A stretch of 64,000 bases of DNA from an uncultured Gammaproteobacteria bacterium (GCA_964344485.1 CAYFNF010000001.1:186115-250114), one strand, 5' to 3'. Counted from the first letter of the stretch, positions 730 to 30,237 are shown. Notes: generated by a model not told the origin, from the letters alone. Numbers and translations: made by a program.

Positions 730-747
730 CCTATTTAAATTAACAAC

Positions 748-1509: not shown

Positions 1510-1744
1510 CCTGCGCATCGTTTCTACTAGACCCATTAGTAGATTTTTCCACATTTTTTCGAAAAACCCTTGACTTATGACGATCATTATTATAGAATTT
1601 TGCAAACGTTAAATAACGTACAAACGTAATGAACTCAGTGACACATACAATACAGAACTGTTTCGAGCTAATTATTAGCCTGATTGTCCTTATTCGTAAG
1701 GGTGGGTTTTTGAGTGCTAGGTAAACGTATTTACACATTACTCA

Positions 1745-1770
1745 AAAGCCCGCCACTCGGCGGGTTTTTT
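1745..1770 (+). terminator. Rho-independent terminator
   Basis: Hairpin gcccgcc-actc-ggcgggt followed by tttttt. Confidence 0.6.
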
Positions 1771-2049
1771 CATTACGTGATTGAGCCTCTCGCAGTACTC
1801 GTTCGGACTATAAACCCGGCTTGCGCCGGGCCAACCGTCCTTCACGAGCACTGCTGCGGCTCTCATGAAATGAATAACCTCACTGTACATGTAGAAATAC
1901 GTCTACAGTGGCACATTGAAAAGTGATTGATGTCAGATACTCTTGTCGATCTGGCGGTTCGTAGGAGGAGAGCGAGCCGCCGGACTGGCAAGAGTATCCT
2001 TCCCCAAGATGGGGAGTAACAGAACCGCGCTGCTGTGAAAAGGAGAGAC

Positions 2050-3351: not shown

Positions 3352-3510
3352 GCGGCAACGGCGAAGCTGGGCGGGCCTACCGAAGCACCACTACAGGACA
3401 TCGCATCAACGACATCAGTCCTTCGGGGTGAGCACCACACTCGCCCCTCCCCATTTTTTTCAACAACCCCGCGTCTGAGCGGTTCATATAAACATGATAT
3501 AATAATCACT

Positions 3511-6468: not shown

Positions 6469-7080
6469 TTACCAGGGCTGTTGCACTTCGGTCGCGTCCT
6501 TGTACGCCTGGTGCAGCTTGGTGAGCCATCCTTCGTCGCCGATTGACAGCGCGCAGAGCAGGACGATCACGATCAGCAGGATGCCCACTGGGAGCAGCAG
6601 GACCACGTCATTTCGCGGCTGACGGGATTGCGGTTGGCGCCACCCCATCACGCACCGCGCTTTCCGGTTTTCCACCATGGACGCGGCACCAGCCAGTAGA
6701 TCACCACCAGCAGGACCAGGGCCGGAAGCACGCGGTAGGTGTCGTTGGCGTGGGTCCACTCGGCCCGTGAGCGCGGTGAAGAGCGCGAAGTCGGTCTGGC
6801 GGATGACCCACCGGATCGCGCGCTTCTGGGCATCCAGCGTGTTGTAGGACGGCTGGTCGCGGAGGGCGCTGGTGCGAAGCATGTCCATGTGGTCCATCAG
6901 GACCACGCCGTTCACCCGCGCGTAGATGTGCACGCAGAGCACGAACAGCAGGACGCCCGCACAGGCTAGGGACTGGATGAACACGAACTCTGGGGAGCCG
7001 TGCACCACACAGTACGCCAGGTCCACGAACGCGCCGAACGCGAGGACGCGACTGAGGTATGCGAAGGTTCGCATGTTCAC
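6469..7080 (-). CDS. Hypothetical membrane protein (high-GC island gene 2)
   Basis: High-GC ORF with hydrophobic N-terminal helices (FAYLSRVLAFGAFVDLAYCVV, LACAGVLLFVLCV). Start is ambiguous between GTG 7080 and ATG 7074. The overlapping antisense ORFs are GC artefacts. Confidence 0.5.
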   Translation of the reverse strand: MNMRTFAYLSRVLAFGAFVDLAYCVVHGSPEFVFIQSLACAGVLLFVLCVHIYARVNGVVLMDHMDMLRTSALRDQPSYNTLDAQKRAIRWVIRQTDFALFTALTGRVDPRQRHLPRASGPGPAGGDLLAGAASMVENRKARCVMGWRQPQSRQPRNDVVLLLPVGILLIVIVLLCALSIGDEGWLTKLHQAYKDATEVQQPW

Positions 7081-7295
7081 CTCGTGTTGGAGTTGATTCC
7101 GTGCTAACGAAATGTGCAGTTTCGCAAAACACGGGCATGCTGTTCAAAACCCTTCTCACTTCGGTAGCGAAGTAGAAGGAGAACACCATACCCGTGTTTC
7201 CGAGCGCTTCTGTTACGGCGGCTCAGGTCACCGTTGTGTTGATAGCACTGAATTGTCGAACAGCTGTTTGTACCATAGTGAACGCTCTTTGTCAA
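7081..7295 (-). promoter_or_regulatory. Promoter-like element plus structured attenuator-type 5' leader, copy 2
   Basis: Minus-strand reading: TTGACA, 17 nt, TACAAA. Then an AACAC-GGGUAUG-GUGUU hairpin. Then a stem ACACGGGUAUGGUG/CAGCAUGCCCGUGU followed by UUUU. Compensatory changes relative to copy 1 preserve the pairing. Confidence 0.45.
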
Positions 7296-7355
7296 CGCTA
7301 TATTCTTATCTCGGTATTTCTGATACAGTAAATAGGTAATAAGTAAGATACAACT

Positions 7356-7697
7356 ATGGCACTATTTCGTTATGCAACCGGGAAGGAGCCGTATTACATT
7401 GAAGCAGGATGGCCGCGGGGGAGTACGTATAAAAAAAGCCCAACCACTATTCGAGTAACAAAAAAAGACGAGCAAGGAAAGTATGTGATGGTCCAGGATC
7501 TTGGAGAAGTGAACTATGAAAAAGAAAAAGCTGAACACGGGTGGCATTTTTCAGCTGAGCAGTTAGGTGATATTGAATTAAAGATTGTGAAGCGAGCACT
7601 ACTGTTTACAGAAGTACAAGTATTCTTGAATGGGGAGAAGTTGAAAGGCAGTGAGATACTCTCAACTGCAGCTGGAGAGGTCGGGAGATACTCGTAA
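7356..7697 (+). CDS. Hypothetical protein
   Basis: Low-GC 113-aa ORF. No recognisable domain and no clear SD. Confidence 0.35.
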   Translation: MALFRYATGKEPYYIEAGWPRGSTYKKSPTTIRVTKKDEQGKYVMVQDLGEVNYEKEKAEHGWHFSAEQLGDIELKIVKRALLFTEVQVFLNGEKLKGSEILSTAAGEVGRYS

Positions 7698-7715
7698 TAA
7701 TCATACTTCATAAGA

Positions 7716-7741
7716 CAGTCGCAGGTGTGCGGCTGTTTTTT
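7716..7741 (+). terminator. Rho-independent terminator
   Basis: Hairpin cagtcgca-ggtg-tgcggctg followed by tttttt. Confidence 0.45.
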
Positions 7742-7800
7742 GTATCCATTGACAGACCTATTCTATTCCTGCATCATAACAGTTCTGTTTGGAGACGCGC

Positions 7801-8169
7801 ATGATAGTGTTGAGAGGGAGTCGAGAGACAGCAACCGCAGCGTTCATCGCTCTGGGATGGAAGGTCCGGGGGAGTCCCCCTGAAGAGCTACCTGATGGTA
7901 CGACACTGCATCCCGTGCACAGCAACGGTGAGGCAGCAGTGGGCAAGGTCTGCATCACGAGTGGACGGCCCCAGACCGCGCAGCGCTTCTCGCTTCCGCA
8001 AGGAGCCGCGATCTACGTGCTCAAGGGGGTGCTCAAGCTGAATGGAGAGACGTACACCGCCGGTACCCTGATCTGGATCCCGGCATCTGGCGCGTTCAAC
8101 GTCGACACCACCCGTGAGTGCACACTCGGGGTGTTCTACCCCGCACTGCCCGGACTGACCGGACCCTGA
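7801..8169 (+). CDS. Cupin-fold-like small protein (high-GC)
   Basis: High-GC ORF. GGAG lies 7 nt before ATG 7801. Beta-rich and cupin-like: GAAIYVLKGVLKLNGETYTAGTLIWIPASGAFNV. Confidence 0.45.
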   Translation: MIVLRGSRETATAAFIALGWKVRGSPPEELPDGTTLHPVHSNGEAAVGKVCITSGRPQTAQRFSLPQGAAIYVLKGVLKLNGETYTAGTLIWIPASGAFNVDTTRECTLGVFYPALPGLTGP

Positions 8170-8440
8170 GCCATGCTGCTGTTGATGCACCGTGTTCCGT
8201 GACATGATCGGACCGCGGATTTTTTTATTCTAATGCCGCTACTCGCTTAACCCTACGTGATACCAGTCTCGCTTCCTCCGCTTCGGCTTTACATGACTGT
8301 TCTCAATTCCTGTAACGCACGCTTCGCGTGCTTTCCTTTGCGTGTTGATTTTTCGTTATCCGTGTCTTTTGCGCAGCCTTCAGGCTTCGGTGCGCTGCGA
8401 ATAGTATCACTTCGGGTGTCGCTTGTATCGCTTCTTGAAT

Positions 8441-8471
8441 AAAAAAACGGCGATGTCTTACGAGATCATCG
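8441..8471 (-). terminator. Terminator for the minus-strand gene ending at 8492
   Basis: On the minus strand, hairpin CGATG-atctcgtaaga-CATCG then CCGUUUUUUU, immediately after the stop. Confidence 0.4.
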
Positions 8472-8491
8472 TCCGCGTGAGCATGTGCGCA

Positions 8492-8980
8492 TCAGTGGAC
8501 TGCGTCGTCTGGTCCGGCGGTGGTACCGGTCAGGATCGAGCCCTCAGGCCCGATTCGATGGCGGAACTCGGTTCCGGGTGATGCAGAGTCCACGATCGCT
8601 TCCATGGGATCGTCAGCAGGCCACGGGCGAGTCGCTTGGTCTCCGCGTTCGCGAGCCAGCTGGATCTCCAGCGGTGGCTCGGGTGGCAGATGGTTCACGA
8701 TCGCGCTCGTGAGGCGGCTCACCAGTTGCGCATACTGCGGCTGTGGAAGTCGGCTCTGGAAGAAGGCCTGCAGTGCAGCGGCCTCGGGTACGCTGTGAGC
8801 TTCGGCGATCTGCCGCACGGTCCCACCCGGGAGCGTTACGACGATGTTCACCGCCGCGTGACAGCACGGGCAGAGTTGCACGTCCAGCGTCACCTGAGCG
8901 AGCCACTCTCGTGTGTAGTACTCCGCGCCTTGTTCGTAGCACAGCACATGCTCAAGGTTCACCTCGTCACAAGTTGCCAA
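8492..8980 (-). CDS. Hypothetical Cys/His-rich protein (possible zinc-binding), high-GC
   Basis: Probable TTG start at 8980 with SD AAGGAG 8 nt upstream. Carries HVLCYEQ...CPCCH. The coding region is high GC, but its promoter region (8981-9070) is AT-rich. Confidence 0.45.
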   Translation of the reverse strand: MATCDEVNLEHVLCYEQGAEYYTREWLAQVTLDVQLCPCCHAAVNIVVTLPGGTVRQIAEAHSVPEAAALQAFFQSRLPQPQYAQLVSRLTSAIVNHLPPEPPLEIQLARERGDQATRPWPADDPMEAIVDSASPGTEFRHRIGPEGSILTGTTAGPDDAVH

Positions 8981-9137
8981 TAGAATTGCTCCTTTGGACA
9001 GGGTTTCGTGAGTGAGGATAGCCCTACTTGTAATATATATTAGATAATATTGCAAGTGTGTATAACGCAAACAGTGCCCGTGCGCTTTAATTTAAACGTG
9101 GTATACTGATAAGGAGTTAAGTAATAAAGACAAAACC

Positions 9138-10949
9138 ATGAGAAAAACGATCCTTGTTCTCAGTACCGGGTTGTTTCTTTTATTGATGCAACCTGTGAGC
9201 GCTGAGACCGCACCGATCACTCTAGACGGCGACATATCAGACTGGGATGACGCTGGTATAGAGAGCCTTATTACCGACACTACCGGAGAGGTAGTTGGGA
9301 CTGATTGGTGCTATAACAACGCTACTTCCCAGTGGGAGGAGAAAGCTGAGAAAGATTGCGGCTCATTATTTGTGAATCAAGAGTTGTTTTTAGACATTGG
9401 AGACTTTCGAATGACTCATGATTCTACATTGATGTACGTTGCGCTGGAGTCAGCCGCGCCAATTATGGGCGTGAAGGTTCTAGATCCAACGAGTTTGGAT
9501 TACGGTAAATATCTACCGTTTGGATATCCATTAGATTGGGATGGTTCCGGCCCACCAGAAAAGTTTATAGCAGGAGCGCCTAGAGCGTTTGACCACTCTA
9601 TGGTGATCTGCTTTGACTTAAATCAGGATGGAATTGATGACCTATTTGCGAGAACGAATTTTCAATGGGAAGAAGGTATGGTTGGCACTGAAACCGGAGA
9701 AGGCATGACTATCATGCACTATCTGTATCAAGATGATGGTGATGGAGAGTACACGCCAAGTACTGATACACTCTTAGAGGAAGAAGAAGACAATCCTGTC
9801 GGTGTTTCATCTGATTCCTTTGATGCGAGTGAAGGGTTGTCAGCAGTCACTGAAGTTTCGGACGAGCTAGAGAGCTTTGAACTTCTAATTGGCGAAACAG
9901 TGAATGTGCATGTAGAGATGTGGTCATCCCTTGCTGACGAGACTGAGCCAGTGGAGTACACCTTCACAGAGTATATACCTGAGAAGATCACCGGGTTAAA
10001 AATAAACGACCCACTACCGCATCGACTCAGCTATGTGAACCTTACATGGGACGCAGATGATTCAGCTGCTACGTATGACATTCAACTATTGAAAAAGAAC
10101 GGTACGGTTTCACAGAGCCTAACATCAGCTACAAATAGTAAAAAGATAAAGAAGAAGTATCTTGTCGCGAATAGCGCAAGAAAAGTGAAGGTCCGAGGCG
10201 TCACCGGCGCTGGAACTCCTGGAGAGTACTCTGATACTAAGACGTTCTATGTTCCACCGGCAATGCCTCGCAATCTTCAAGCAAAGCGCGTCGGTCCAAC
10301 TACTGCAGTACTTGATTGGGTTGCACCAAAGAGGCACGCAAAGCTCAAACACTATAGAGTTATTCTATACAAAGGGAAGAAGGCCGTTCGAAGGTTGAAT
10401 GTGAAAAAGACGCAAAAGTTGGTTCGAAACTTAGATCCATCCAGCAAGTACTCCTTTAAAGTACGAACTGTGCGAAGAACTGGAGTATCAAGTAGGTGGT
10501 CTAAGAAGAAATCATTTACCACTATGGGGCCAGTACAGTATGTCAAGATCGAAGACATGACTCGAGTGGCAGATGATGACCTGAAACCTGGCGCGGATAT
10601 TGATGCATTGGTACTCAATCAAGAAGACGGGACCAAGTATTACGCAGACATGATCCCTGATCGGTACATTCCGATCTCCAGTGGAGATGATGACCCAGCA
10701 GAGATGCTCGGTATGCCAGACTATTCAGTAGATACAGACTGGGGGTACACTTCTTTGGGTGGAGTTGGCGGATATGCAGTGATCAAGCTAGAGCAAGCCA
10801 TGGATAAGGACTCTAAGAATCTAGTCATTCGTGAACTGCGCACAGTCTCTAAAGTCGGGGATGCTTATAAAGTCTACTTTTCTGAATCAGAGCTAGGCCC
10901 ATGGACATTCATTGGTCGCCACTCTGGCCGCGCAATCATTGGGTTATAA
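9138..10949 (+). CDS. Secreted protein with fibronectin-III-like/Ig-like domains and a Lys/Arg-rich region
   Basis: Signal peptide MRKTILVLSTGLFLLLMQPVSA|ETAP. Fn3-like segments include PRNLQAKRVGPTTAVLDWVAP. Confidence 0.6.
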   Translation: MRKTILVLSTGLFLLLMQPVSAETAPITLDGDISDWDDAGIESLITDTTGEVVGTDWCYNNATSQWEEKAEKDCGSLFVNQELFLDIGDFRMTHDSTLMYVALESAAPIMGVKVLDPTSLDYGKYLPFGYPLDWDGSGPPEKFIAGAPRAFDHSMVICFDLNQDGIDDLFARTNFQWEEGMVGTETGEGMTIMHYLYQDDGDGEYTPSTDTLLEEEEDNPVGVSSDSFDASEGLSAVTEVSDELESFELLIGETVNVHVEMWSSLADETEPVEYTFTEYIPEKITGLKINDPLPHRLSYVNLTWDADDSAATYDIQLLKKNGTVSQSLTSATNSKKIKKKYLVANSARKVKVRGVTGAGTPGEYSDTKTFYVPPAMPRNLQAKRVGPTTAVLDWVAPKRHAKLKHYRVILYKGKKAVRRLNVKKTQKLVRNLDPSSKYSFKVRTVRRTGVSSRWSKKKSFTTMGPVQYVKIEDMTRVADDDLKPGADIDALVLNQEDGTKYYADMIPDRYIPISSGDDDPAEMLGMPDYSVDTDWGYTSLGGVGGYAVIKLEQAMDKDSKNLVIRELRTVSKVGDAYKVYFSESELGPWTFIGRHSGRAIIGL

Positions 10950-13218: not shown

Positions 13219-13857
13219 TTGTCAATTATGCTAATACAGACATTACTACAAGAACCAATTTTTTTTCTGCTATGGGTACTTGCCATTGTGTTTTCCTTGA
13301 CGATCCACGAATTCTCTCACGGGTTAATGGCAAAGATCCAGGGCGATCCTACGGCTGAGCTTGAAGGACGACTTTCGCTAAACCCATTAGCGCATATCGA
13401 TTGGATGGGCTTCTTCTTACTGGTGGTCGCTGGATTCGGTTGGGCAAAACCTGTTCCGTTTAATCCGTATAATCTAAAGAACAAGCGATTCGGTCCAGCG
13501 TTGGTTGCAATGGCTGGTCCGCTGTCGAATATTCTCGCTGTGGTCGTGATTGGCAGTGTATTAGCGTTGTTCTATCATTTAACTGGTATCACCGACGACA
13601 ACTTGATGATTATGTTCTTTGTGTTAGTGATCCAAGTGAACGTCTTACTTGCTGTGTTTAATTTTATTCCGATTCCTCCGTTAGATGGTTCAAAAATCCT
13701 CTACGCTATTATTGGACAGCGTCGTCCTGATATTGTGATGTTCTTGGAACGATACGGTATTTGGTTATTACTCGCATTAGTCTTCTTCGGCGGAAGCATT
13801 ATCTTTCGGATTTTCTACTTCTTCTACGAACTAATCCTACGATTGATTTTCTTCTAG
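13219..13857 (+). CDS. Site-2 protease family (M50) zinc metalloprotease
   Basis: HEFSHG (HExxH) motif, LDG motif (NFIPIPPLDGSKI), multiple TM helices. Confidence 0.75.
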   Translation: MSIMLIQTLLQEPIFFLLWVLAIVFSLTIHEFSHGLMAKIQGDPTAELEGRLSLNPLAHIDWMGFFLLVVAGFGWAKPVPFNPYNLKNKRFGPALVAMAGPLSNILAVVVIGSVLALFYHLTGITDDNLMIMFFVLVIQVNVLLAVFNFIPIPPLDGSKILYAIIGQRRPDIVMFLERYGIWLLLALVFFGGSIIFRIFYFFYELILRLIFF

Positions 13858-13892: not shown

Positions 13893-14147
13893 TTATACAG
13901 CTTTTATCATGATCAGCCGGTATGCAGGACCGATGCCAGTAAAGAACAAGTAGACCACGAGAATAATAGCGATTGCAATTAAACTATCTGTTATCCGAGT
14001 TTTTGCTTCTTCTTCTTTCTTTTTATCTCCTTTGTGTGTATAGAACTCGAATGCGCCCAAGATAATGAGCAATACTGCAACAGCGATCACCACGCCAAGG
14101 ATGATCTTAATTAACAGTAGTATCATTGGAAATGTTTCTGTTCCCAT
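13893..14147 (-). CDS. Possible small two-TM membrane protein
   Basis: 84-aa ORF MGTETFPMILLLIKIILGVVIAVAVLL...IAIAIILVVYLFF. No SD. It overlaps the alternative N-terminal extension of the FG-GAP gene. Confidence 0.25.
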   Translation of the reverse strand: MGTETFPMILLLIKIILGVVIAVAVLLIILGAFEFYTHKGDKKKEEEAKTRITDSLIAIAIILVVYLFFTGIGPAYRLIMIKAV

Positions 14148-14231
14148 ATATTGTAAGTATACACCATACGGCTTTTTTTTAAAAACAATCGAGCGTTGTG
14201 TTATAATACATCCATTATTACGAAAAAAAGC

Positions 14232-16692
14232 AATGAAAAACACTTTACTATTCGTAAGTGGTGTAGCGATCACCTTTTTATTATGCATGTCTCCGGTAGC
14301 AGCAGAAACCGAGCTGAGTCTGGGAATTGATGAAATAGTTCAGTTTACTGGTGAAACCGACGTAGATATGGCTGCGAGTTCTGTCGCATCCGCTGGCGAC
14401 GTCAACGGAGACGGGTATACTGATTTTCTCGTTGGAGCGACCGGAGTGGACCTGGGAAATGGTGCAGCGTACTTGGTGTATGGACAATCGAGCAACTATG
14501 CGTCAGCTTCACTAGGTACAACAGTAAAATTCAGCGCCGAGAGCTCAATGGATTTTGCAGGTAACTCTGTCGCATCTGCCGGCGACGTAAACGGTGATGG
14601 ATATGATGATATTCTTATTGGCGCACAAGCAAATGATGCAGTAGCAACGACCGCAGGAGCAGCGTACTTACTCTATGGCAAAGCAGACAATCACACCTCA
14701 GCTTCTCTTGACACCGCTATTCGGTTTACTGGCGAAGCGTTGAATAATTCAGCTGGTACATCCGTCGCATCTGCCGGCGACGTAAACGGTGATGGATATG
14801 ATGATATTCTTATTGGTGCTCCAGGTAATAGTGATGCAGGCTCTGGTGCTGGAGCAGCGTACTTACTCTATGGCAAAGCAGACAATCACACCTCAGCTTC
14901 TCTGAGTACTGCGGTACAACTCTCTGGAGAAACAGGTGATTCAGCAGGTACATCCGTCGCATCTGCCGGCGACGTAAACGGCGATGGATATGATGATATT
15001 CTTATTGGTGCAACGAGTGCAGCTTCTGGTAATGGAGCAGCGTACTTACTCTATGGCAAAGCAGACAATCACACCTCAGCTTCTCTGAGTACTGCGGTAC
15101 AATTTTCAGGGGAAGAAAATACAGACACCGCAGGTAACTCTGTCGCATCCGCTGGCGACGTAAACGGTGATGGATATGATGATATTCTCGTGAGCGCAAT
15201 GATGGCTGAATCTATGAAAGGAGGAGCATACTTACTCCATGGCAAAGCAGACAATCACACCTCAGCTTCCTTAAGTACCGGGATTCAATTTCTCGGATTA
15301 ACTGATATGGACATGGCTGGAGATGATGTCGCATCTGCCGGCGACGTAAACGGTGATGGATATGATGATATTCTAGTCGGCTCAACACAAGGCGGTGGCA
15401 TGAAAGGTGTTGCGTATTTACTGTACGCTGAGGAATCAGATATTTCCATTACTAACAACAACTCATCAATAAATACTATAGAATGCAGTGTTGGTACATT
15501 TGCGGATCCAGGCGCAACAGCTACTGATGAATATGAAGATTCATCCTTATCTGTATCATCATCAGGAACCGTTACTGAAGAAATTGTTGGAAGTTATCCA
15601 ATAACGTATACCGCGGTAAATGTTCTGAGTGTCGCATCTTCTGCGATACGAACAGTGACAGTTCAAGATACTACCGCGCCAACCATCAGTATTACCAATA
15701 ATACAGTTGAGTATAATATTGTAGAGTGTGGTGTTGATACTTTTTCAGATCCGGGCGCAACAGCAACAGATACGTGCGATAGCAGTATAACGCCATCTGC
15801 CCTAGGGACAGTTTCAGAAGAGACAGCTGGAACATATTCTGTAGTATATTCAGCTACAGATGATTCGGATAATCCAGCAGATGCTGCAACGCGATCCGTT
15901 CTAGTACAAGATACTACCTCACCTACTATCACTCTCACCGGAGAAAGTTCAGTTACAGTGTCGCAAGGAGATACATATACGGATGCTGGTGCGACTGCAA
16001 CGGATAGTTGTGAGGGAGACCTTACAAGCAGCATTCAGACCACTAGTACGGTAGATACCTCTGTTGTTGGGGAGTACTCTGTTACCTATACTCTCACTGA
16101 CGCAGCAGAAAACCCGGCGACTGCAGTGGTACGAACCGTGAATGTTATCGCAGCTGTAGATGATAGTGAAGATGAGCAGTCTCCGGTATCTTCATTAGGA
16201 ACTAAGAAAAAGGGGAAGGTAAAAGTCAGCTACGAGGATGGATCATCAAGTACTTTTTCTGTATTTACTAAGGGGAAACCTAAAGCTAGCCTTGCTTCTG
16301 ATGACGAAAGAGTCATTGTGGTGAATAGTAAAGGAAAGCTTGTGCGCATAATTGATGCGTTTTCAGGAGAGGTGTTAGCGAGTAAGAAGATCCGAGCCAA
16401 AAAGCAAGCTATTACTAAAATTAAGGTAATTGATTTCTATAGCAAAAAGGACTCAAAAGATGAGGTGTTGGTTGCAACTAAGAAAAAGAGAGTATTGAAA
16501 ATCACAGTACTAACTCTTCACGATACGACGGATAAGCTATCAAAGAAAACTACGAAGATTATTAAGCCGTTTAGAAGCAACAAGTACAAGATAGTGCGCA
16601 AGAAAAAGCAGGTCAGAATCAAGGTCGGGAAGAAAATAAAAAAGAAGTACAAAGTTACGAAGAGGGGGAGACTGAAGAAGGTAAAGAAATAG
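14232..16692 (+). CDS. Secreted FG-GAP (integrin-alpha-like) repeat protein with Ig-like (PGATATD-type) domains and a Lys-rich C-terminal tail
   Basis: Signal peptide MKNTLLFVSGVAITFLLCMSPVAA|ETE. Seven repeats of SVASAGDVNGDGYDDILIGA. Three copies of DTTAPTI...C.VDTF.DPGATATD. The last 170 aa are Lys-rich. Confidence 0.7.
14380..15420 (+). repeat. Tandem ~180-nt repeats encoding the FG-GAP modules
   Basis: Near-identical nucleotide blocks (catccgtcgcatctgccggcgacgtaaacggtgatggatatgatgatattcttattggtgc and gcagcgtacttactctatggcaaagcagacaatcacacctcagcttctct) recur at ~14580, 14760, 14940, 15120 and 15300. Confidence 0.7.
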
Positions 16693-16922: not shown

Positions 16923-17345
16923 ATGCCAACAATAAATCAACTCGTTCGAAAAGGACGAAAACAAACCAAGAAGAAATCAAAGACGCCAGAGTTGCAGACC
17001 ACGATGAATGCGATTAAGCGTCGCAGAACAAAGCTGCCAAAAGGCTCTTCGTTCAAACGTGGTGTGTGCGTGCGTGTCTATACCACCACACCTAGAAAAC
17101 CGAACTCTGCGCTACGTAAAGTTGCTCGTGTTCGACTTTCTAACGGTACAGAAGTGACCGCGTATATTCCGGGAGAAGGGCACAACCTCCAAGAGCACAG
17201 TATTGTGCTAGTAAAAGGTGGAAGAGTTCCTGACCTTCCAGGTATTCGATATCGTATTGTCCGAGGAGTGTATGACACTCAAGGAGTAGAGGGGCGAAAA
17301 CAATCTCGCTCTCAATACGGTGTGAAGAAGACAAAAGGAGATTAA
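16923..17345 (+). CDS. rpsL: 30S ribosomal protein S12
   Basis: [13 protein letters not shown]... with a conserved S12 core. Confidence 0.95.
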
Positions 17346-17365: not shown

Positions 17366-17830
17366 ATGAGAGGTAAACAAGCCCCAAAACGAAAAATAGC
17401 TCCAGATCCACGATTCAACTCCACGCAAGTCGCGAAATTCATTAACTACATTATGCAGTGTGGGAAGAAGACTATTGCGCAGAAGATTGTCTACAGAGCA
17501 TTTGATTTTATCGAGAATAAAACTGGAGAGCCAGGTTATGATGTCTGGCAGAAAGCGATCCAGAACGTTTCTCCTACAGTGGAAGTACGCGCACGTCGTA
17601 TCGGTGGTGCGAACTATCAAGTACCAGTAGAGGTGCGCCCAGAGCGACGGTTCACTCTTGCGTGCCGATGGATTATCGAAGCAGCAACTGCTCGAAAAGG
17701 AAAGCCAATGCGTGAGAAGTTAGCTTTGGAAATTATGGATGCAGCAAACAGTGAAGGTGACGCATTCAAGAAGAAAGAAGATGTACAGCGAATGGCAGAG
17801 GCAAACCGTGCCTTCGCCCATTTTGCGTAG
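17366..17830 (+). CDS. rpsG: 30S ribosomal protein S7
   Basis: Conserved S7 sequence MRGKQAPKRKIAPDPRFNS... Confidence 0.95.
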   Translation: MRGKQAPKRKIAPDPRFNSTQVAKFINYIMQCGKKTIAQKIVYRAFDFIENKTGEPGYDVWQKAIQNVSPTVEVRARRIGGANYQVPVEVRPERRFTLACRWIIEAATARKGKPMREKLALEIMDAANSEGDAFKKKEDVQRMAEANRAFAHFA

Positions 17831-18036: not shown

Positions 18037-20181
18037 ATGGCAGAAGATACATTTGAATTAAAAGACGTCCGTAATATCGGAATCATTGCGCATATCGATG
18101 CAGGGAAGACCACTGTAACCGAGCGCGTGCTGTTCTATACCGGAAAGAAGCATAAGATCGGAGAAGTGCATGAAGGTGAAGCAGAGATGGACTGGATGGA
18201 GCAGGAGCAAGAGCGTGGTATTACTATCACCTCTGCTGCAACTACCTGTTTCTGGAACGACAAGAAGATCAACATCATCGACACTCCGGGTCACGTAGAC
18301 TTTACCGCCGAGGTTGAGCGTTCTTTGCGTGTGTTAGACGGTGGAGTTGTGGTATTCGACGGCGTCGCTGGTGTGGAGCCGCAATCTGAGACAGTATGGC
18401 ATCAAGCAGATAAGTATGAGGTGCCACGATTGGGCTTTGTTAATAAAATGGACCGGACTGGCGCTGATTTTTACAGCGACCTAGAATCTATCCGTACACG
18501 ATTAAACAAGCGTGCGTTTCCAATTCAGCTTCCAATTGGTGCAGAAGATAACTTCCAAGGAATCATTGACTTGATCGAGCAGAAAGCTGTTATCTATAAG
18601 GATGACATGGGGCAGGAGTTTGAAGAGACTGATGTGCCAGAGGACATGAAGGAGAAAGTCGAGCAGTATCGTGGTGAGCTGTTAGAGGCCGTTGCTGAGA
18701 ATGATGAAGAGCTTATGGAAGCATATCTTGAAGGCAAAGAGATCACAGTAGAGGATATTAAGAGAGTTCTACGACAAGCAACAGTCTCTAATGATATGAT
18801 TCCAATCCTTTGTGGATCTGCATTAAAGAACAAAGGAGTACAGTATCTGTTGGACGCAATTACTGAGTACTTGCCATCACCGTTAGACCTTCCAGCAACC
18901 CAAGGAACAGATCCGGACGATGAAGAGAAGAAGGTCGAGCGAAAATCCGAGGATTCAGAACCTCTGGCAGCACTTGCATTCAAGGTGGCTGCGGATCCGT
19001 TTGTTGGAAAGTTGATTTTTATTCGTGTCTATTCTGGTGTGTTGAAATCCGGTTCGTATGTATTAAACATGACAAACGGAAAAAAAGAGCGCATCTCTCG
19101 TTTGGTTCGAATGCATGCAAACTCACGCGAAGAGATCCAAGAGATCGGCGCAGGAGATATTGCTGCAGCAGTTGGTTTAAAGGAGACTGTGACAGGAACG
19201 ACACTATGTGATCCAGATGATCCAGTGATTCTTGAGCAGATTACGTTCCCAGAGCCAGTGATCTCGATTGCAGTTGAACCAAAGACTAAAGCAGACCAGG
19301 AGAAGATGGGCCTGGCAATCGCACGATTAGTTGAAGAAGACCCTACCCTTCGTGTGAAGTCAGATGAAGAGATCAACCAGACCATTCTTTCTGGAATGGG
19401 AGAGTTACATCTGGAGATCATTATCGACCGGTTGAAACGAGAGTTCAAAGTAGAGGCAAATATCGGTAAACCACAAGTAGCGTATAAAGAAACCATCCGA
19501 AAGGAAGCAGAGGGTGAAGAGAAATATGTGAAACAGTCTGGTGGACGTGGTCAGTACGGACACTGTCTGTTACGTGTGGAGCCAATGCAAGTAGTCGCCA
19601 GTGATCAAGACGACGAAGAAGAGAAAGAGCCTGAGCACTTCGAGTTTGTCAATAGCATTAAAGGTGGGTCCATTCCGAATGAGTATATCCCTGCAGTAGA
19701 GAAAGGTGTGCGTGAAGCAATGGATCGTGGAATTCTCGCTGGGTATCCGCTGCTCGATATTCGCGTGACGTTGTATGACGGTTCCTATCATGATGTGGAC
19801 TCCTCTGAAGCTGCATTTAAAGTTGCAGGATCTAAAGCGTTCCAGACTGCGGCGCGGAAAGCTGATCCGGTCATTCTGGAGCCAGTTATGAGTGTTGAAG
19901 TAGTCACGCCTGAAGAGTTTATGGGAGACGTGATGGGCGACTTAAACGCTAAGCGCGGCCAGATTCAAGAGATGTCTGATCGTGGTAACATGAAGATCAT
20001 TGAAGCGCTTGTTCCTTTAGCAGAGATGTTTGGGTATGTAACTGCACTGCGTTCCATGACTCAAGGACGTGCAAATTCCTCTATGGAGTTTGAGAAATAT
20101 GATGAAGTTCCGAAAAATGTTGGTGAAAAAATTATCGAAGATAGAGGCGGTACTGCCAAGTCAGACGACGACGAAGAGTAA
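18037..20181 (+). CDS. fusA: Elongation factor G
   Basis: G-domain AHIDAGKTT and DTPGHVDF. Full five-domain length of 714 aa. Confidence 0.95.
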
Positions 20182-20186
20182 AAGTA

Positions 20187-20211
20187 AGACCCGGATCATC
20201 CGGGTCTTTTT
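20187..20211 (+). terminator. Rho-independent terminator after fusA
   Basis: Hairpin agacccgg-atcat-ccgggtct followed by ttttt. Confidence 0.65.
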
Positions 20212-20241
20212 AATACAGGTGGCTAGTGTTATCATAGTACT

Positions 20242-21609
20242 ATGAATAGCGAAACTATTTCCAACCAGTATCAGGAATATGTAAGGAAGATGTTTTCTTC
20301 TGTTTCTTCACAAGAGCAAGCACGTGTACTTGAGCCGTTTGTTTTAACTGGAAACGGAGATTTAGAGTATCCTGTTTTTACTGTACCTACATCTTTACAA
20401 CCAGTGTTCTTTCCAAAGAAACAGATCGACGAGATCGCGCGAAAGACTGAGATATTGGATGAGATGCTTATTGAACTTTTTGATGTTATTCAGAAAGATG
20501 CTGCAGTACGGGCATTTCTGCACGTATCTGATTTTGAGTTGCAATTACTACAACAGCGACCAGAGTGTGAAGCACCGTTACCGTTCTGGAGGATAGACAT
20601 GAATCTTGGGCCCGAAGGTGGTAAGTGCGTTGAATTCAATACTGATGCAGCACGCGGGCGTGGAATTGCAGAACAGTTGGAGTGGGATTTTGCCAACACA
20701 CAGCTATTCCAAGAGTTCATGCAGCAGCATCCGGAGATCACGCCACCAGAGCAGGTGGACCTAATGACGGAGATATATGATCGCGCAGCCGAGCAGTTTG
20801 AGCGGTTCTCTGGATTATCAGCAAATCAGATGAAGGTCGGAGTTCTCTGCTGGGAAGACTACGGCTTTATGATTGAGATAGAACTGTATAGAGACTTCTG
20901 GAGAGAGCGTGGTATTGAAGCAGATATTATCGACCCGCGATCCGTGGAGTACTCCAGCGGCAAGGTTACGGCGAACGGAAAAGAGTATAACTTTTTTTCA
21001 CGCTGGGTGGATTTAGACAAGCTCATAGAGTATCAATGTACACCGATCCTTCAAGCGTATCTTGATGGTGCTATTTCGATATACCCAACCATCGCTTCAG
21101 GAGTTGTTGGCAAGAAAGCAGTGTTTGAGTTGTTCGTTGATCCTGCGTATAAAGCGCTCATCGATCCTGAGAAGTGGGAATACGTTTCATCTCTCATCGC
21201 TTGGACGCGTCGATTGCGCCCTGGTGAAACAGAGCTGCCATCAGGAGAGAAGAGCGATTGTGTTGCATTCACAAAAGCGCATCGCGAAGAGCTAGTAGTT
21301 AAAGCCTCTGTAGGAACTGAGGCAAAAGAGGTGGTGATTGGAGCAGACGTGAGTCAAGCAAAGTGGGAGCAGCAAGTAGACAACGCAGCACAAAAAGGTA
21401 CATGGGTAGTACAAGAATACGTGCAATGGAATAGTCAGGATTTCTTAACGTATGATGGTCAGCAATGTAGCACTGAACAAAGAAACTACGATTGTTTGCC
21501 GTGCTTGACTCACGGAACATACTCGTCCAGTTTTACTCGATCTGCTGTAGGAAATATTCTAAATTTTTCTGCAGGTGCAACTATCGCACCACAATACTAT
21601 ATTCAGTAA
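20242..21609 (+). CDS. ATP-grasp-like amidoligase (possibly circularly permuted ATP-grasp / GSP-synthetase-like family)
   Basis: 455 aa. C-terminal blocks WVVQEYVQ and NILNFSAGAT resemble ATP-grasp Mg/ATP-binding motifs. It sits next to a transglutaminase-like gene, the classic partner. Family assignment is tentative. Confidence 0.4.
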   Translation: MNSETISNQYQEYVRKMFSSVSSQEQARVLEPFVLTGNGDLEYPVFTVPTSLQPVFFPKKQIDEIARKTEILDEMLIELFDVIQKDAAVRAFLHVSDFELQLLQQRPECEAPLPFWRIDMNLGPEGGKCVEFNTDAARGRGIAEQLEWDFANTQLFQEFMQQHPEITPPEQVDLMTEIYDRAAEQFERFSGLSANQMKVGVLCWEDYGFMIEIELYRDFWRERGIEADIIDPRSVEYSSGKVTANGKEYNFFSRWVDLDKLIEYQCTPILQAYLDGAISIYPTIASGVVGKKAVFELFVDPAYKALIDPEKWEYVSSLIAWTRRLRPGETELPSGEKSDCVAFTKAHREELVVKASVGTEAKEVVIGADVSQAKWEQQVDNAAQKGTWVVQEYVQWNSQDFLTYDGQQCSTEQRNYDCLPCLTHGTYSSSFTRSAVGNILNFSAGATIAPQYYIQ

Positions 21610-21611
21610 TA

Positions 21612-24572
21612 CTAATTCGGTCGATTTCTCGGTGGCATGAAGAAGAAGCCGGTGTATCGTGGATTTCGTTTCTCAACTTTTCTTTCTGCTCGGTTATACT
21701 TCCACGCTTTTCTTTGGTAATCAATGCCGTCTCGAATTGGATGAGTAAACATTGCAGCTGCAATTTTGAATTGGGTGAATACTATGTGACGACGTTCACG
21801 TATATGCGGGCTGATTCGAATCATTGCTTGAAGTAGATCATCATCTTTGGATCGCGTATACGCTTCCCAGTAGGCATCCAGAGCTTCATCGTATCGTTCT
21901 TGTTTTTCACGGAGTTCTCCGAGCTTGCTTATCACTGTATATCCTTCTGAGTTGAGCTCTAAGGCGCGCGCCATTCGTGCAACTGCTTCATTGGTTCGTC
22001 CGCAATCCATGAGTGCGATGCTGTGTCGTGCATATATATCTCCACGAGGGTACTGTGAGAGTTCGGGTGCGTCATCAACTGATTCTTCATATATCTCTAT
22101 TGCTCGAGCGTACTCTTGCTCTGCTCCTTCGAATTGTTCCAGATGCATCATTGCTCCGGCGAGGAATTGATGTGCATACTGGTGATCTGGTTGTTGCTTC
22201 AGCACTCGTTCAAACTCTACTGCTGCTTCTTCATACCGTCGTTGATTATATAACCACGTTCCGTAGTGGTGTCGCAGTTCAGCATTATCTGGAGTTAATT
22301 CTAGCGCGCAATCATAATAAAACCGTGCATAATCATGTTCTTGCACTGCGAGCATGTCCGCTATCCTGCTTGCGAGACCAGCATTCTCTCGATCACTTTT
22401 GAACGCTTCCATTAATTCATATATTGCCTCGATTTGATTCGCTTGGTCGCGATTGTCTCTCCGTAATAGGAGATTCGCTAATCCTGTGTGTAGTTCTGGT
22501 GCATTATCTGCTTCTAGCGCTTGTCGAAATTTCGCTTCAGCAACAGCAAGAGAGGCTTGATAGTCTTCTGCACGCTCTAAGCGAGAAAGCGTAAATGCAA
22601 GATGCATTTCGTGGAACGGAGATTCTGGCTCTTCTTCAATAGCTTCTCTATACAACCGTTCTGCTTCTCTATACGCTGCAGCAGCTTCCTCGGTCTGTTT
22701 TGTTTCCCTTAAACATCCACCCAATCTGTTATAGAGAGAAGGATTGCTTGGATCCAACGCAATGGCGTGACGTAGTTCTATAATCGCTTGCTCTGTAGCC
22801 TCGATCCGCTCTAGTGTTGATGCATAGTTCCACCGTAATTCCGCGTTGTCCGGTAGCAGCTCGACAGCTTTTTGCATTGCTATGCATGATTCTTTATTTT
22901 GTCCTTCTTCTTGAAGGAACGTTGAAGTCCATTCTAGTACATCTATCTGTTGGCCAGTTTTGGGATCAAATGCAGTCACATGTGGACGCTCTGTACTGAA
23001 CCATGGAACTCTCTCTTCATACGCATCCTGGCTTAACCTAAACCGAATTGCTTTTCTCTCTGAAGAGTCGCGTGCAATCTCTCCGATCTCTGCAACTGTT
23101 GCATCTTGGACCATGTCATCCGTGAGTTCTCCATTGGTACGAGAGGTGAGCATATCGTGCCAACGCACTTTGCCGTCTGATGTTACTAATAACATGAGCG
23201 CGTGGCCAGGAACGTTTACATGTAAGTGGTCAATACCGATCTCTTCAAGAAACGCACTGCCGAGAATGGATGCGCCTACACAGTTCAACTCTTGTTGCTC
23301 CAGCATGCGCGCAGGATTTGCTGCACGTCGTTGGTATCGGTAAGATCCAACGATTTGTTGAATCCGCTCTGCATACTGTTGTTCTAGCGCAGCTGTTACT
23401 TCATCGTTACCGGCTTCGCGGGCAGCAAGAATACTTGCTCTCATTTGATCAACACCAATGGCTTCGCGTAGCGTGTCGCGTTTTCTATCCAGTTCAATAC
23501 CAAGTGCTTCAAGTCGTTCATCAACAGATTCATACCCCATTCCATTTATTAGCATCTCCACTCCTCTATCAAATAACGCGGTGTGCGCTTCTCGCTCTGG
23601 CATGCGCATAGTGCTTCGAGTGCGGTCATCAACGGTCTGTTGAAGACGGGCAAACGGCCCCCTTCTCTCTGCCCACGGCTCAGCAGCTGTTACTTTACGG
23701 CTCGGCTCCCGATCCATCGCAGCAAACAGTATTCTAATAATACGATCTCGATGTTCGTTTAATTTGTCCTGAGGGATTTCATCATCCGGTCCTAGCTTGA
23801 GACGACGACGCAATTTTCGTAACTGTTTCTGGTAGACTTCTGATCCGAGTAACCATTCGTCGACTTCTTGCTCTTCCTCAGGTGTCAGCTCTTGTTGCGC
23901 GATGGTTCGAAGCCCCTGTTCAAGGGTTTCTTGTTGATCATGGCCAAGCAGATTACTACCGTAGCGATAGAATTCATATGCAAAATCTGTTGCAAGCGGC
24001 ATGTGTTCATCTGTGACATGAAATCGACCTGCCATATAGATACCTGCATTACGGAACATGCGCCCAAGCTCTTGTAGTTGCTCGAACCGTTGTTCCCGTA
24101 AGTCCGGCTCATCTGCGTAGGTATCGTGATCGATTGCTTGGATAATTCGAAGGAGTTCATGCGGTTGGACATCCTTTGGAATAAATAAATTTTGTTCTGG
24201 GGGAGACCGTCGCGATACCTCTTCTACTAGGGGAGTGCCTGGTTCTTCTGGAAGCGGAGCGATATCATCATCTCCTAATGTTGGCGGATCTTCATCAGAT
24301 TCGTCTGCAGGCGTGTCGAACAGCGCTTCTAATGTCGGCCGGTCATCATCCTGTACCTCAACTGGAGAGACGTTTTCTTGTGGCACAGGCTCGAGCAGCG
24401 CATCTAGTCCACCGCGCTCATCCCACTCTTCTCTATCCATGAATTGTGGCCTGATTGAGTCGTTCACTTCGCACCACTTTGTAAAAAAAGACCGAAGAGG
24501 GGCGATATTAGCGAATCTGCGCCCTTCTTGCGCTGCGAGTGGCTCGTGAAATGTTGGTGTATACTCTGACAT
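21612..24572 (-). CDS. Large protein with transglutaminase-like Cys-His-Asp core and C-terminal TPR repeats
   Basis: Putative core NCVGASILGSAFLEEIGIDHLHVNVPGHALMLLVTSDGKVRWHDM. Multiple TPR-like repeats lie in the C-terminal 450 aa. Acidic N-terminal region. Confidence 0.5.
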   Translation of the reverse strand: MSEYTPTFHEPLAAQEGRRFANIAPLRSFFTKWCEVNDSIRPQFMDREEWDERGGLDALLEPVPQENVSPVEVQDDDRPTLEALFDTPADESDEDPPTLGDDDIAPLPEEPGTPLVEEVSRRSPPEQNLFIPKDVQPHELLRIIQAIDHDTYADEPDLREQRFEQLQELGRMFRNAGIYMAGRFHVTDEHMPLATDFAYEFYRYGSNLLGHDQQETLEQGLRTIAQQELTPEEEQEVDEWLLGSEVYQKQLRKLRRRLKLGPDDEIPQDKLNEHRDRIIRILFAAMDREPSRKVTAAEPWAERRGPFARLQQTVDDRTRSTMRMPEREAHTALFDRGVEMLINGMGYESVDERLEALGIELDRKRDTLREAIGVDQMRASILAAREAGNDEVTAALEQQYAERIQQIVGSYRYQRRAANPARMLEQQELNCVGASILGSAFLEEIGIDHLHVNVPGHALMLLVTSDGKVRWHDMLTSRTNGELTDDMVQDATVAEIGEIARDSSERKAIRFRLSQDAYEERVPWFSTERPHVTAFDPKTGQQIDVLEWTSTFLQEEGQNKESCIAMQKAVELLPDNAELRWNYASTLERIEATEQAIIELRHAIALDPSNPSLYNRLGGCLRETKQTEEAAAAYREAERLYREAIEEEPESPFHEMHLAFTLSRLERAEDYQASLAVAEAKFRQALEADNAPELHTGLANLLLRRDNRDQANQIEAIYELMEAFKSDRENAGLASRIADMLAVQEHDYARFYYDCALELTPDNAELRHHYGTWLYNQRRYEEAAVEFERVLKQQPDHQYAHQFLAGAMMHLEQFEGAEQEYARAIEIYEESVDDAPELSQYPRGDIYARHSIALMDCGRTNEAVARMARALELNSEGYTVISKLGELREKQERYDEALDAYWEAYTRSKDDDLLQAMIRISPHIRERRHIVFTQFKIAAAMFTHPIRDGIDYQRKAWKYNRAERKVEKRNPRYTGFFFMPPRNRPN

Positions 24573-24853
24573 TGATATACGAATTACTGTATATTGTACT
24601 GTATTTATTTTAATTTGTCAAGTTATAATAGGGCATAAATAGCCTTTTTTGCTAATATTAGCGCTTCTGTTTTCCACATTCCGTTCACACGCGTAAATAT
24701 TGATCAAAAAAAAGAATTCTTATATAATCATTCAGGTTTGTGTTAGCGCGTTTCTACTTGACAGCTTAATACAAACACACTATCGTTACCTTTGCTTTGC
24801 GAACAAGCAATTCAATTATTTTATCTATTTAATAAAATTATTTACAAGTATTT

Positions 24854-26044
24854 ATGGCAGAAAAGTTCGATCGATCAAAAACGCATGTGAATGTTGGAAC
24901 CATTGGTCACGTTGATCATGGAAAGACAACATTGACAGCTGCTATCTTGGCAGTTTCTGGTGCACAGGGAAAAGCTGCGCAAGATAAGAAATTTGAGGAC
25001 ATTGATAACGCGCCAGAAGAGAAAGAACGCGGAATCACTATTAACACCGCACACGTTGAGTATGAGACTGATACACGTCACTATGCTCACGTTGACTGTC
25101 CAGGGCACGCAGACTACGTAAAGAACATGATTACCGGTGCCGCACAGATGGACGGAGCAATTTTAGTTGTGTCAGCAACTGACGGTCCTATGCCTCAGAC
25201 TCGAGAGCACATCTTACTAGCACGTCAGGTGGGTGTTCCATCAATTGTGGTGTTCTTGAACAAATGTGATCAAGTAGAAGATGAAGAGCTTCTTACACTA
25301 GTAGAAGTTGAGATTCGCGAACTGCTCAGTAAATACGAATTCCCTGGCGATGAGATTCCTATCATTCGCGGTTCCGCACTGAAAGCTGTAGAGAATCCAA
25401 CTGATGAAGAAGCTGCAAAACCTATTGCTGAATTACTGAAAGCAGTTGATGAGTATATCCCAGCACCGGAACGTGATGTAGACAAAGACTACCTCATGCC
25501 TATTGAAGATATCTTCTCTATCGAAGGTCGTGGAACAGTGGTTACTGGTCGTATCGAACGCGGTAAAGTACAAGTGAATGAAGAGATTGAGATCGTTGGA
25601 CTGCGCGACACCACCAAGACAGTGGTAACTGGTGTTGAGATGTTTAACAAACAGCTAGACGAAGGAATGGCAGGAGATAACGCAGGTATTCTTCTTCGCG
25701 GAACCAAGAAAGATGAAGTAGAGCGTGGGCAAGTACTTGCAAAACCAGGAACCATTACTCCGCATACAGAATTCGAAACAGAGGTATACGTTCTATCAAA
25801 AGAAGAAGGCGGACGATCTACACCATTCACTAAAGGATACAAACCACAGTTCTATATGAGAACCACTGATGTTACTGGAGAGGTTGAGCTTCCTGAAGGA
25901 ACTGAGATGGTAATGCCTGGCGACACTGTGAGCTTCAAAGTAAAACTTGGAAAACCTATTGCTATGGAAGAGAAGCAACGATTCGCTATTCGTGAAGGCG
26001 GAAAGACTGTCGCATCAGGAGTTATTACTAAAATTATTGCATAA
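24854..26044 (+). CDS. tuf: Elongation factor Tu
   Basis: [14 protein letters not shown] and DCPGHADY. Full-length EF-Tu. Confidence 0.95.
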
Positions 26045-29718: not shown

Positions 29719-30237
29719 ATGAAAGTTCGCGCAACAGCAAAATTTGTCAGAATATCTCCACGGAAAGCACGACTGGTGATTGACCAAGTGCGTGGTGTTT
29801 CTATTGCAGAAGCAGAGCGTACATTACAGTTCATGAACAAGAAAGCAGCAGAGCCAGTATTGAAGCTAATTAAATCTGCGGTTGCGAATGCTGAGCACAA
29901 TAATAAACAGAAGAAAGAACACCTCTATATTGCAGAGATTACAGCAAATGATGGATTTACTATGAAGCGATGGAGACCACGCGCGTTCGGGCGTGCAACC
30001 AAGATTCGAAAACGAACGACTCACCTGACAGTGGTGCTAGATGAGACTGAAGAGTATAAGCAGGAGGCAGCAGCAAAAGCAAAGAAGGCTAAGAAAACAG
30101 CAAAGGCAAAGAAAGAGAGTGCTACGAAGAAGCCAGAAGCAAAGAAAGAAGAGAAAAAGCCTACAGCAAAGAAGAAACAAGCAAGTCCAGCAGCAGATAG
30201 TAAGAAAGAGAAGAAAGAAACTACTAAAAAGAAATAA
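29719..30237 (+). CDS. rplV: 50S ribosomal protein L22 (C-terminal Lys-rich extension)
   Basis: L22 core MKVRATAKFVRISPRKARLV... Confidence 0.9.
   Translation: MKVRATAKFVRISPRKARLVIDQVRGVSIAEAERTLQFMNKKAAEPVLKLIKSAVANAEHNNKQKKEHLYIAEITANDGFTMKRWRPRAFGRATKIRKRTTHLTVVLDETEEYKQEAAAKAKKAKKTAKAKKESATKKPEAKKEEKKPTAKKKQASPAADSKKEKKETTKKK

Follow-up and report, generated by a model that had tools for sequence, protein, structure and literature searches.

The fusA-tuf gap of a Patescibacteria genome as a probable slot for accessory genes: an ATP-grasp ligase gene and a TPR protein gene that are probably unrelated

Several described systems come close to the locus treated here. Multigene insertions between translation operons have been described for Gammaproteobacteria (PMC6735719). 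Circularly permuted (CP) ATP-grasp ligases are known from systems whose operon also encodes an Alpha-E protein, a transglutaminase and often Anbu (Iyer et al. 2009, as cited in PMC5666114 and PMC3597751). The fungal Cp1B, an ATP-grasp amide ligase, takes part in E-64 biosynthesis (PMC12568646), and the SirB1/YchA family is of unknown function (PMC10318531). We analyzed a stretch of 64,000 nucleotides (GCA_964344485.1 CAYFNF010000001.1:186115-250114, deposited under an uncultured Gammaproteobacteria bacterium; "the window", with positions counted from its first letter), in which two convergent open reading frames (ORFs) lie between fusA and tuf. ORF-A encodes an ATP-grasp protein of 455 amino acids (aa), and ORF-B a protein of 986 aa with a long array of tetratricopeptide repeats (TPR). 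With a probability of roughly two thirds, the str/S10 region is transcriptionally split at this place, the gap is a variable slot, and both genes are accessory passengers that are unrelated to each other.

A preliminary description, made from the DNA alone, had regarded the fusA-tuf junction as ultra-conserved and the insertion as unusual. The insertion is present, with a gap of 4.7 kb and two extra genes, and no ORF of at least 80 aa was listed in it beyond ORF-A, ORF-B and ORFs overlapping them. The conservation of the junction does not hold for the relatives of this genome, whose gaps are commonly filled and carry differing cargo. The window shares 81% identity in fusA with a metagenome-assembled genome (MAG) of Candidatus Kerfeldbacteria (L008, the closest relative in GTDB) and 84% with the contig L001, and the next-best loci after L008 are Patescibacteria MAGs. 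Judged by its fusA, the window is from a Patescibacteria (candidate phyla radiation, CPR) genome close to Candidatus Kerfeldbacteria. A synteny set of 80 species-representative loci was retrieved with the C-terminus of fusA, and gap statistics were taken from the 51 related loci that have tuf downstream on the same strand. In 13 of these loci fusA and tuf are less than 200 bp apart, and 15 have 200-999 bp between them; the distance is 1-3 kb in another 11 and 3 kb or more in the remaining 12. A gap of at least 1 kb is thereby found in 23 of the 51, and six further loci had no tuf within 9-10 kb. Among the loci labelled as other phyla the gap measured 4-55 bp in six out of seven and 780 bp in L023, which is labelled Pirellulales.

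The cargo of the gap varies from genome to genome. In L008 it is a diversity-generating retroelement (JBDRKW010000006.1, L008:10960-13555) with a reverse-transcriptase ORF matching RVT_1 at 3e-20; its template and variable repeats are 124 nt long, and 14 out of 14 mismatches fall on adenines of the template copy. In L046 an APH kinase stands together with an ORF of 603 aa whose sequence suggests a putative RecQ-type helicase. L015 carries a phosphoribosyltransferase-like gene, and L026, L043 and L056 contain ORFs that read like putative secreted repeat proteins. The gap of L001 holds six genes. One of them is the sole close homologue of ORF-A that was found (50% identity); ORF-B is absent, and an unrelated 281-aa gene comes next. 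At least two related genomes have retained ORF-A at this position. The five further genes of the L001 gap (L001:1781-5543 and 7017-7862) encode a 437-aa protein with an 'FLHDIGK' motif, an esterase-like protein of 288 aa, and proteins of 303, 201 and 281 aa without Pfam match. Neither the window nor any of the loci retrieved contains a homologue of one of these five. A link between L001 and the locus L119 through a 281-aa gene following the ATP-grasp gene was rejected, as the two proteins are unrelated.

Both ends of the gap point to a split of the region. A hairpin that resembles an intrinsic terminator begins 5 nt past the stop codon of fusA (AAGACCCGGA-TCA-TCCGGGTCTT, then TTTAAT), with a folding energy of -18.1 kcal/mol and z = -3.4 against shuffled sequences. 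The terminator scanner flagged it on the minus strand only, the tail on the plus strand having 4 instead of 5 T in the scoring window. Equivalent hairpins stand right after fusA in L001 and L008. At the other end, a consensus scan of the 281-bp intergenic region (24573-24853) gave three promoter-like sites in both directions, two of them in tandem facing tuf. About 200 bp upstream of tuf are kept in the window (24647-24853), in L001 (7962-8171) and in L008 (~13580-13796), with different cargo ahead of them. The TATAAT and TTGACA hexamers upstream of tuf are invariant in the alignment of these three genomes, and the window and L001 are 74% identical over 261 bp. The layout of the four genes, the terminator of fusA and the separate upstream region of tuf had all been noted in the preliminary description and were borne out by the ORF calls, the folding and the three-genome alignment. 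The kept stretch also includes 'AAACACACTATCxTTAxCTTxGC', for which Rfam has no match and which could represent a leader or regulatory element.

In the mechanism we propose, the terminator would close the rpsL-rpsG-fusA unit, and from the tandem promoter-like elements transcription would begin anew into tuf and the S10 operon (downstream of tuf the ORF map gives rpsJ, rplC, rplD, rplW, rplB, rpsS and rplV). The DNA between terminator and promoters would tolerate insertions because it lies outside both units, and would in this way have become a variable slot for accessory genes. The frame of terminator, variable cargo, promoters and tuf is, as far as the compared genomes tell, ancestral in the clade. 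Since the gap commonly holds varying genes in the phylum, ORF-A and ORF-B are probably unrelated passengers.

Regarding the two proteins themselves, ORF-A belongs to the GspS/CP ATP-grasp ligase clade as a divergent and probably active member, in agreement with the ATP-grasp-like character it had been given earlier. Tested with the family hidden Markov models (HMMs) PF03738, PF14403 and PF04174 at the curated threshold, it matches GSP_synth marginally (29.6 bits versus a cut-off of 29.3) and CP_ATPgrasp_1/2 weakly. A word-indexed search of 5.8 billion clusters returned ORF-A itself and one relative, P0002, with 50% identity, and an exhaustive HMMER search of 1.84 billion representatives gave 1830 family proteins at E<=1e-3, 28 of them at E<=1e-30. 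Most of the 1830 are approximately 450 aa long and aligned over their full length. CP_ATPgrasp_2 was matched by 36 out of 49 family members, GSP_synth by 16 and CP_ATPgrasp_1 by 16, with best E-values from 1e-11 to 1e-14. The family profile found the PDB entry 3N6X, a circularly-permuted ATP-grasp protein annotated as 'putative glutathionylspermidine synthase', at E = 2.4e-16, with query residues 5-286 and 326-446 colinear with residues 20-321 and 347-472 of the chain. Further PDB matches were 9CJN (Cp1B, 3e-12), 2IO7 (E. coli GspSA, 2e-8), 7UK8 (7e-5) and 7UK6, the latter two being YgiC and YjfC, putative acid-amine ligases.

Seven residues (E131, K292, K354, G367, W375, Q391, R433) are invariant and N133 is nearly so in the 49 sequences, and all of them are present in ORF-A. 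By general analogy with ATP-grasp enzymes they may have catalytic roles in binding nucleotide and Mg, as a Lys pair, a Gln/Glu hinge and an E-x-N motif. The solved relatives (GspSA, YgiC, YjfC, Cp1B) are amide ligases acting on small molecules. By analogy with them, ORF-A most likely activates a carboxylate with ATP as an acyl-phosphate and couples it to an amine or amino acid, and its substrate would more likely be a small molecule or a short peptide than a protein tag. The multidomain members of the family carry tandem ATP-grasp repeats or, in one case, a fusion to a non-ribosomal peptide synthetase (condensation, carrier and thioesterase modules). In the public annotation ORF-A (P0001) has 439 aa, its start lying 16 codons after the ATG at 20242 (20242-20289). 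We favor the 455-aa form because residues 10-15 are conserved in P0002, so that the public start is probably 16 codons too late.

The genomic context of distant ORF-A relatives was taken from five individual look-ups. Four more distant family members at five loci (L089, L116-L119) have no transglutaminase, TPR or Alpha-E neighbors. Next to these distant relatives we found a NUDIX hydrolase; an N-formylglutamate amidohydrolase with a decarboxylase dependent on pyridoxal phosphate (PLP); a succinyl-CoA ligase with Amidohydro_2; and an alpha/beta hydrolase. A scan of genome contigs with the ORF-A alignment for relatives in context gave no match. In L116 an 81-aa ORF without Pfam match (L116:5693-5938) stands 10 nt upstream of the ATP-grasp gene, with the N-formylglutamate amidohydrolase and the PLP-dependent decarboxylase downstream; this group is possibly a small-peptide or amine-ligation cassette.

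ORF-B combines a TPR array with an N-terminal domain for which the databases hold no annotation. The long array is confirmed by Pfam (TPR_19 at 1e-18, TPR_2 at 8e-17, TPR_16, TPR_14, TPR_17, TPR_11 and TPR_8, all above their cut-offs), and matches to NCBIfam are confined to the TPR regions. Homologues comprise four entries of the protein database (26-31% identity) and 26 JGI metagenome loci; all of them have the N-domain followed by a TPR array shorter than that of ORF-B, and the alignments show the N-domain conserved in Patescibacteria-type contigs. An acidic, proline-rich insertion in the N-domain is missing from all aligned homologues, including the four closest, P0004-P0007. The motifs NCVGAS (430-435), GHALMLL (456-462) and WHDM (471-474), from which a transglutaminase-like Cys-His-Asp core had been proposed, were verified in the translation. 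C431, G433, H457 and D473 are invariant across 20 homologues of 24-33% identity, with spacings of 26 and 16 residues, and a Gln four residues ahead of Cys431 is nearly invariant. Going by its position, this Gln could be an oxyanion-hole residue. W33, C34, N37, S39 and R47 are likewise invariant in an N-terminal 'FFxKWCExNDSI' motif of the 20-sequence alignment.

In the AlphaFold2 model of the N-domain the mean predicted local distance difference test score (pLDDT) is 57.6, with local values of 65-87 around residues 430-500. C431 lies in a helix (420-444) that is followed by strands at 448-454, 457-463 and 469-473; H457 starts the second strand and D473 ends the third. As modelled, the helix and three strands around the triad have the topology of a minimal papain/transglutaminase-like core. 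No Pfam match to a transglutaminase or to clan CA was obtained at E<=10 for ORF-B, five N-domains or 16 core segments. Neither the N-domain nor the isolated core profile had a PDB sequence match, one PDB profile search of ORF-B being dominated by TPR matches. A Foldseek search of the low-confidence model against the PDB gave nothing below E = 1, with the best hits to unrelated folds. Aligned to E. coli YchA with hhalign, the core profile places PGH on PTQ and D on N, but without significance (E = 0.15, probability 0.4%); this comparison used one reference sequence, which is catalytically degenerate. The residues of the proposed core were borne out and the secondary structure of the low-confidence model is in keeping with it; the HMM and fold matches that would identify it did not appear. 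A thiol active site of transglutaminase/papain type in the N-domain is plausible but unproven, and we lean somewhat towards it; for a new papain-like family the odds are about even. ORF-B would be a cytoplasmic, stand-alone protein of Patescibacteria type, whose TPR array would bind a protein partner and whose N-domain would probably act as a peptidase, amidase or transamidase through a minimal papain/transglutaminase-like thiol site.

At the loci of ORF-B homologues an ATP-grasp family member was found in 0 out of 29 cases, and no neighbor recurs in about 25 loci. In one of them (L090:1-9764) the ORF-B homologue (7965-9764, plus strand) lies 4.5 kb from fusA (1361-3466, minus strand) and tuf (1-813, minus strand), in divergent orientation. 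We judge this nearness to be compatible with chance because about 29 loci were inspected and the genomes are small (roughly 1 Mb).

Table 1. Positions of the features discussed, in the window unless the locus L008 is named.
Feature	Coordinates	Strand	Basis
rpsL	16923-17345		ORF map
rpsG	17366-17830		ORF map
fusA (EF-G), last gene of the rpsL-rpsG-fusA unit	18037-20181	+	ORF list
Intrinsic-terminator-like hairpin (10-bp GC-rich stem, 3-nt loop) and T-run	hairpin 20186-20208, with T-run to 20213	+	sequence, folding, scanner
ORF-A, 455 aa, probable ATP-grasp carboxylate-amine ligase, GSP-synthase / circularly-permuted ATP-grasp clade	20242-21609	+	ORF list, Pfam, family profile
ORF-B, 986 aa, unannotated N-terminal domain and TPR array	21612-24572	-	ORF list, homologues P0004-P0007, 26 metagenome loci
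TPR array, ORF-B residues ~546-920	21813-22937	-	several Pfam TPR models (E from 1e-18 to 1e-11)
N-terminal domain of ORF-B, residues 1-552, mostly helical	22915-24572	-	alignments, AlphaFold2 model
Acidic, proline-rich insertion, ORF-B residues 62-125	24198-24389	-	alignment gap, translation, pLDDT <50
Candidate thiol-enzyme core, ORF-B residues 420-475	23148-23315	-	alignment, model, translation
Cys431	23280-23282	-	translation
His457	23202-23204	-	translation
Asp473	23154-23156	-	translation
Promoter-like site facing ORF-B, TTGACA-17-TACAAT, 11/12 matches, 21 nt upstream of start codon	24593-24621	-	consensus match only
Promoter-like element 1 facing tuf, TTGATC-17-TATAAT	24700-24728	+	consensus scan
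Promoter-like element 2 facing tuf, TTGACA-17-TATCGT	24758-24786	+	consensus scan
tuf (EF-Tu), S10 operon directly after (rpsJ at 26109)	24854-26044	+	ORF list, tblastn vs relatives
L008 retroelement, target ORF	L008:10960-11643		
L008 retroelement, variable repeat	L008:11513-11636		
L008 retroelement, template repeat	L008:12003-12126		
L008 retroelement, reverse-transcriptase ORF	L008:12539-13555		

Some other genes of the window are worth recording. A protein of 875 aa is encoded just upstream of rpsL, at 14065-16692 on the plus strand; it contains six FG-GAP repeats and three bacterial surface Ig-like domains, and its C-terminal tail is very rich in lysine. Divergent from it (13893-14288, minus strand) lies a gene for a 131-aa protein matching T4SS_pilin, the type IV secretion system pilin, at 3e-7. 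Ribosomal protein L23 (27985-28512, plus strand) has a Lys/Glu-rich N-terminal extension of approximately 85 aa, the Pfam L23 domain starting at residue 90. The ORF at 29719-30237 (plus strand), taken for L22 because of where it stands in the cluster, has a C-terminal tail rich in Lys and Ala. Past the ribosomal protein cluster, a gene at 41439-46685 (plus strand) encodes an alpha-2-macroglobulin-like protein of 1748 aa, which matches A2M, A2M bait-region, MG2 and Big_5.

The preliminary description had suggested a peptide-tagging or ligation system, that is, ORF-A and ORF-B as a two-component peptide or protein modification system akin to CP ATP-grasp/Alpha-E/transglutaminase. In such a system a tag, be it an amino acid or a peptide, would be attached by the ligase, and its removal, processing or transfer would be the task of a thiol enzyme guided by the TPRs. 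We consider both the system and this division of labor very unlikely. The idea draws on the clade of ORF-A, which is also that of the CP ATP-grasp ligases of modification systems, on the invariant Cys-His-Asp of ORF-B with its transglutaminase-like spacing, on the immediate adjacency of the genes, and on the co-occurrence of CP ATP-grasp, Alpha-E and transglutaminase genes in the passages cited at the outset (PMC5666114, PMC3597751, citing Iyer et al. 2009). The domain searches however bear out the ATP-grasp (CP_ATPgrasp/GSP_synth) and TPR parts and not the others: Alpha-E had no match at E<=1 in either protein, no further gene in the gap could supply it, and neither ORF-B nor its 20 homologues match a transglutaminase HMM, Transglut_core included. 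As the genes converge, no transcript would be shared. The pairing is moreover absent from all other loci examined, be it at the loci of ORF-B homologues, in L001, where the ORF-A homologue precedes the unrelated 281-aa gene, or around the distant ORF-A relatives, and the multidomain members of that family contain no transglutaminase or Alpha-E fusions. We give similarly little credit to a narrower version, in which both genes form a lineage-specific, minimal ligase/thiol-enzyme pair without Alpha-E, with some protein of the translation machinery as its target, the N-domain founding a new Patescibacteria-restricted family of transglutaminase/papain-like enzymes with TPR targeting. The pairing is best explained as coincidental adjacency, from which we infer that a functional link is absent.

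That the 4.7-kb segment arrived recently, by horizontal acquisition of an island or by insertion of a mobile element, and interrupted a fusA-tuf operon that had been intact until then, is improbable to about the same degree. Both genes are rare, ORF-A having one close relative among 5.8 billion clusters, and the closest GTDB relative has a retroelement at the very same site. Nevertheless the GC content of the insert (0.44-0.50) is the same as that of the flanks, and no meaningful direct or inverted boundary repeats were found around it, nor a tRNA near it, an integrase or transposase domain in either protein (Pfam scan), a match of either to PADLOC defence models at E<=0.01, or a match to Rfam families in the fusA-tuf region. 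The preliminary description had thought of an acquired system; none of these checks speaks for a recent acquisition. In L001, where ORF-A occupies the same site, the identity to the window is 84% for fusA and just 50% for ORF-A, which fits long residence, and the frame of terminator and tuf promoters is kept in three genomes with different cargo. All relatives of ORF-B were found on metagenome or MAG contigs, and in L090, the sole one examined further, fusA is 61% identical to that of the window. For ORF-B taken alone there is an alternative of more weight, although we still hold it for the less likely one: its N-domain would not be transglutaminase/papain-like at all, the Cys, His and Asp together with W33-C34 would bind a metal or be structural, and the protein would be a non-catalytic TPR scaffold. 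The unsuccessful Pfam, PDB and Foldseek searches, the insignificant alignment to YchA and the low overall confidence of the model would fit this. So would C34, which is also an invariant Cys, and further polar residues that are invariant and distant in sequence from the triad. The order and spacing C-x25-H-x15-D nonetheless suit a minimal transglutaminase-like core, with S-x26-Q-x15-N at the aligned positions of YchA. In the model the Cys is on a helix and three strands follow, of which the second bears the His and the third the Asp, as in the canonical topology; the Gln stands at a possible oxyanion-hole position, and the combination of transglutaminase-like core and TPRs is already known from the annotation of E. 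coli YchA ('transglutaminase-like/TPR repeat-containing protein').

While we prefer a split region with a variable slot and two unrelated passengers, one must keep in mind what weighs against it. ORF-A and ORF-B are immediate neighbors with 2 nt between their stop codons, and, with one genome to judge from, a lineage-specific functional link between them may still exist. The sampling of ORF-B homologues is uneven, and on the many short contigs a partner gene farther away would have escaped notice. The promoter scan counted 9 sites versus 8.4 expected in shuffled sequence, and the transcription behavior has been deduced from conservation in just three genomes. Several MAGs of the synteny set carry doubtful taxonomic labels. 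The AlphaFold2 model of ORF-A, built on a two-sequence alignment, has a mean pLDDT of 36, so that its fold rests on sequence profiles, and the papain/transglutaminase-like fold of ORF-B is not confirmed by Pfam, PDB, Foldseek or the hhalign comparison.

The results indicate that gene-order rules from well-studied bacteria do not transfer to Patescibacteria, and that the location of a gene pair in the fusA-tuf slot of this phylum is no ground for reading it as a functional system. Two protein families come into view, neither of which changes current understanding: a sizeable, uncharacterized family of ATP-grasp proteins of approximately 450 aa, to which ORF-A belongs and which counts about 1,800 cluster representatives, and a family of about 30 members from Patescibacteria-type metagenome contigs and MAGs, to which ORF-B belongs and which combines an unannotated domain of approximately 500 aa, an invariant Cys-His-Asp and TPRs.

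Compared to known proteins, ORF-A is like 3N6X, CP_ATPgrasp_1/2 (COG2308) and the GspS-type ligases in its size of approximately 450 aa and in a nearly full-length colinear profile. It has in common with its GspS and CP ATP-grasp relatives an E-x-N near the N-terminus, followed by a conserved Lys, Gln-Glu, Arg and Asn. Its identity to characterized proteins is at most approximately 25%, its scores in Pfam reach the gathering thresholds at most, and the glycine-rich 'GYGGK' of the relatives reads 'VGTEAK' in ORF-A. Unlike GspSA it has no amidase domain, and unlike the COG2308 proteins no Alpha-E partner. ORF-B has the same order as SirB1/YchA (Transglut_core2, PF13369), with a candidate papain/transglutaminase-like core before TPR-like repeats, and the motif spacing C-x25-(PGH)-x15-D is in register with S-x26-(PTQ)-x15-N of E. 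coli YchA. It differs from this family in having no PF13369 match and no significant likeness (E = 0.15), in approximately 400 extra helical residues before the core with their own invariant FFxKWCExNDSI, and in a much longer TPR array.

The locus as a whole is like the CP ATP-grasp/Alpha-E/transglutaminase operons in that a ligase of a related ATP-grasp clade stands beside a Cys-His-Asp protein. In contrast to those operons it has neither Alpha-E nor an Anbu gene nor a match to Transglut_core or Bact_transglu_N, the genes converge, and their adjacency is not conserved in other loci examined. With the canonical str operon (rpsL-rpsG-fusA-tufA) and the S10 operon it has the gene order in common, rpsL, rpsG, fusA, tuf, rpsJ, rplC and onward being retained. 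It departs from them by 4.7 kb and two genes between fusA and tuf, which are flanked by a terminator-like hairpin on the one side and promoter-like elements on the other.

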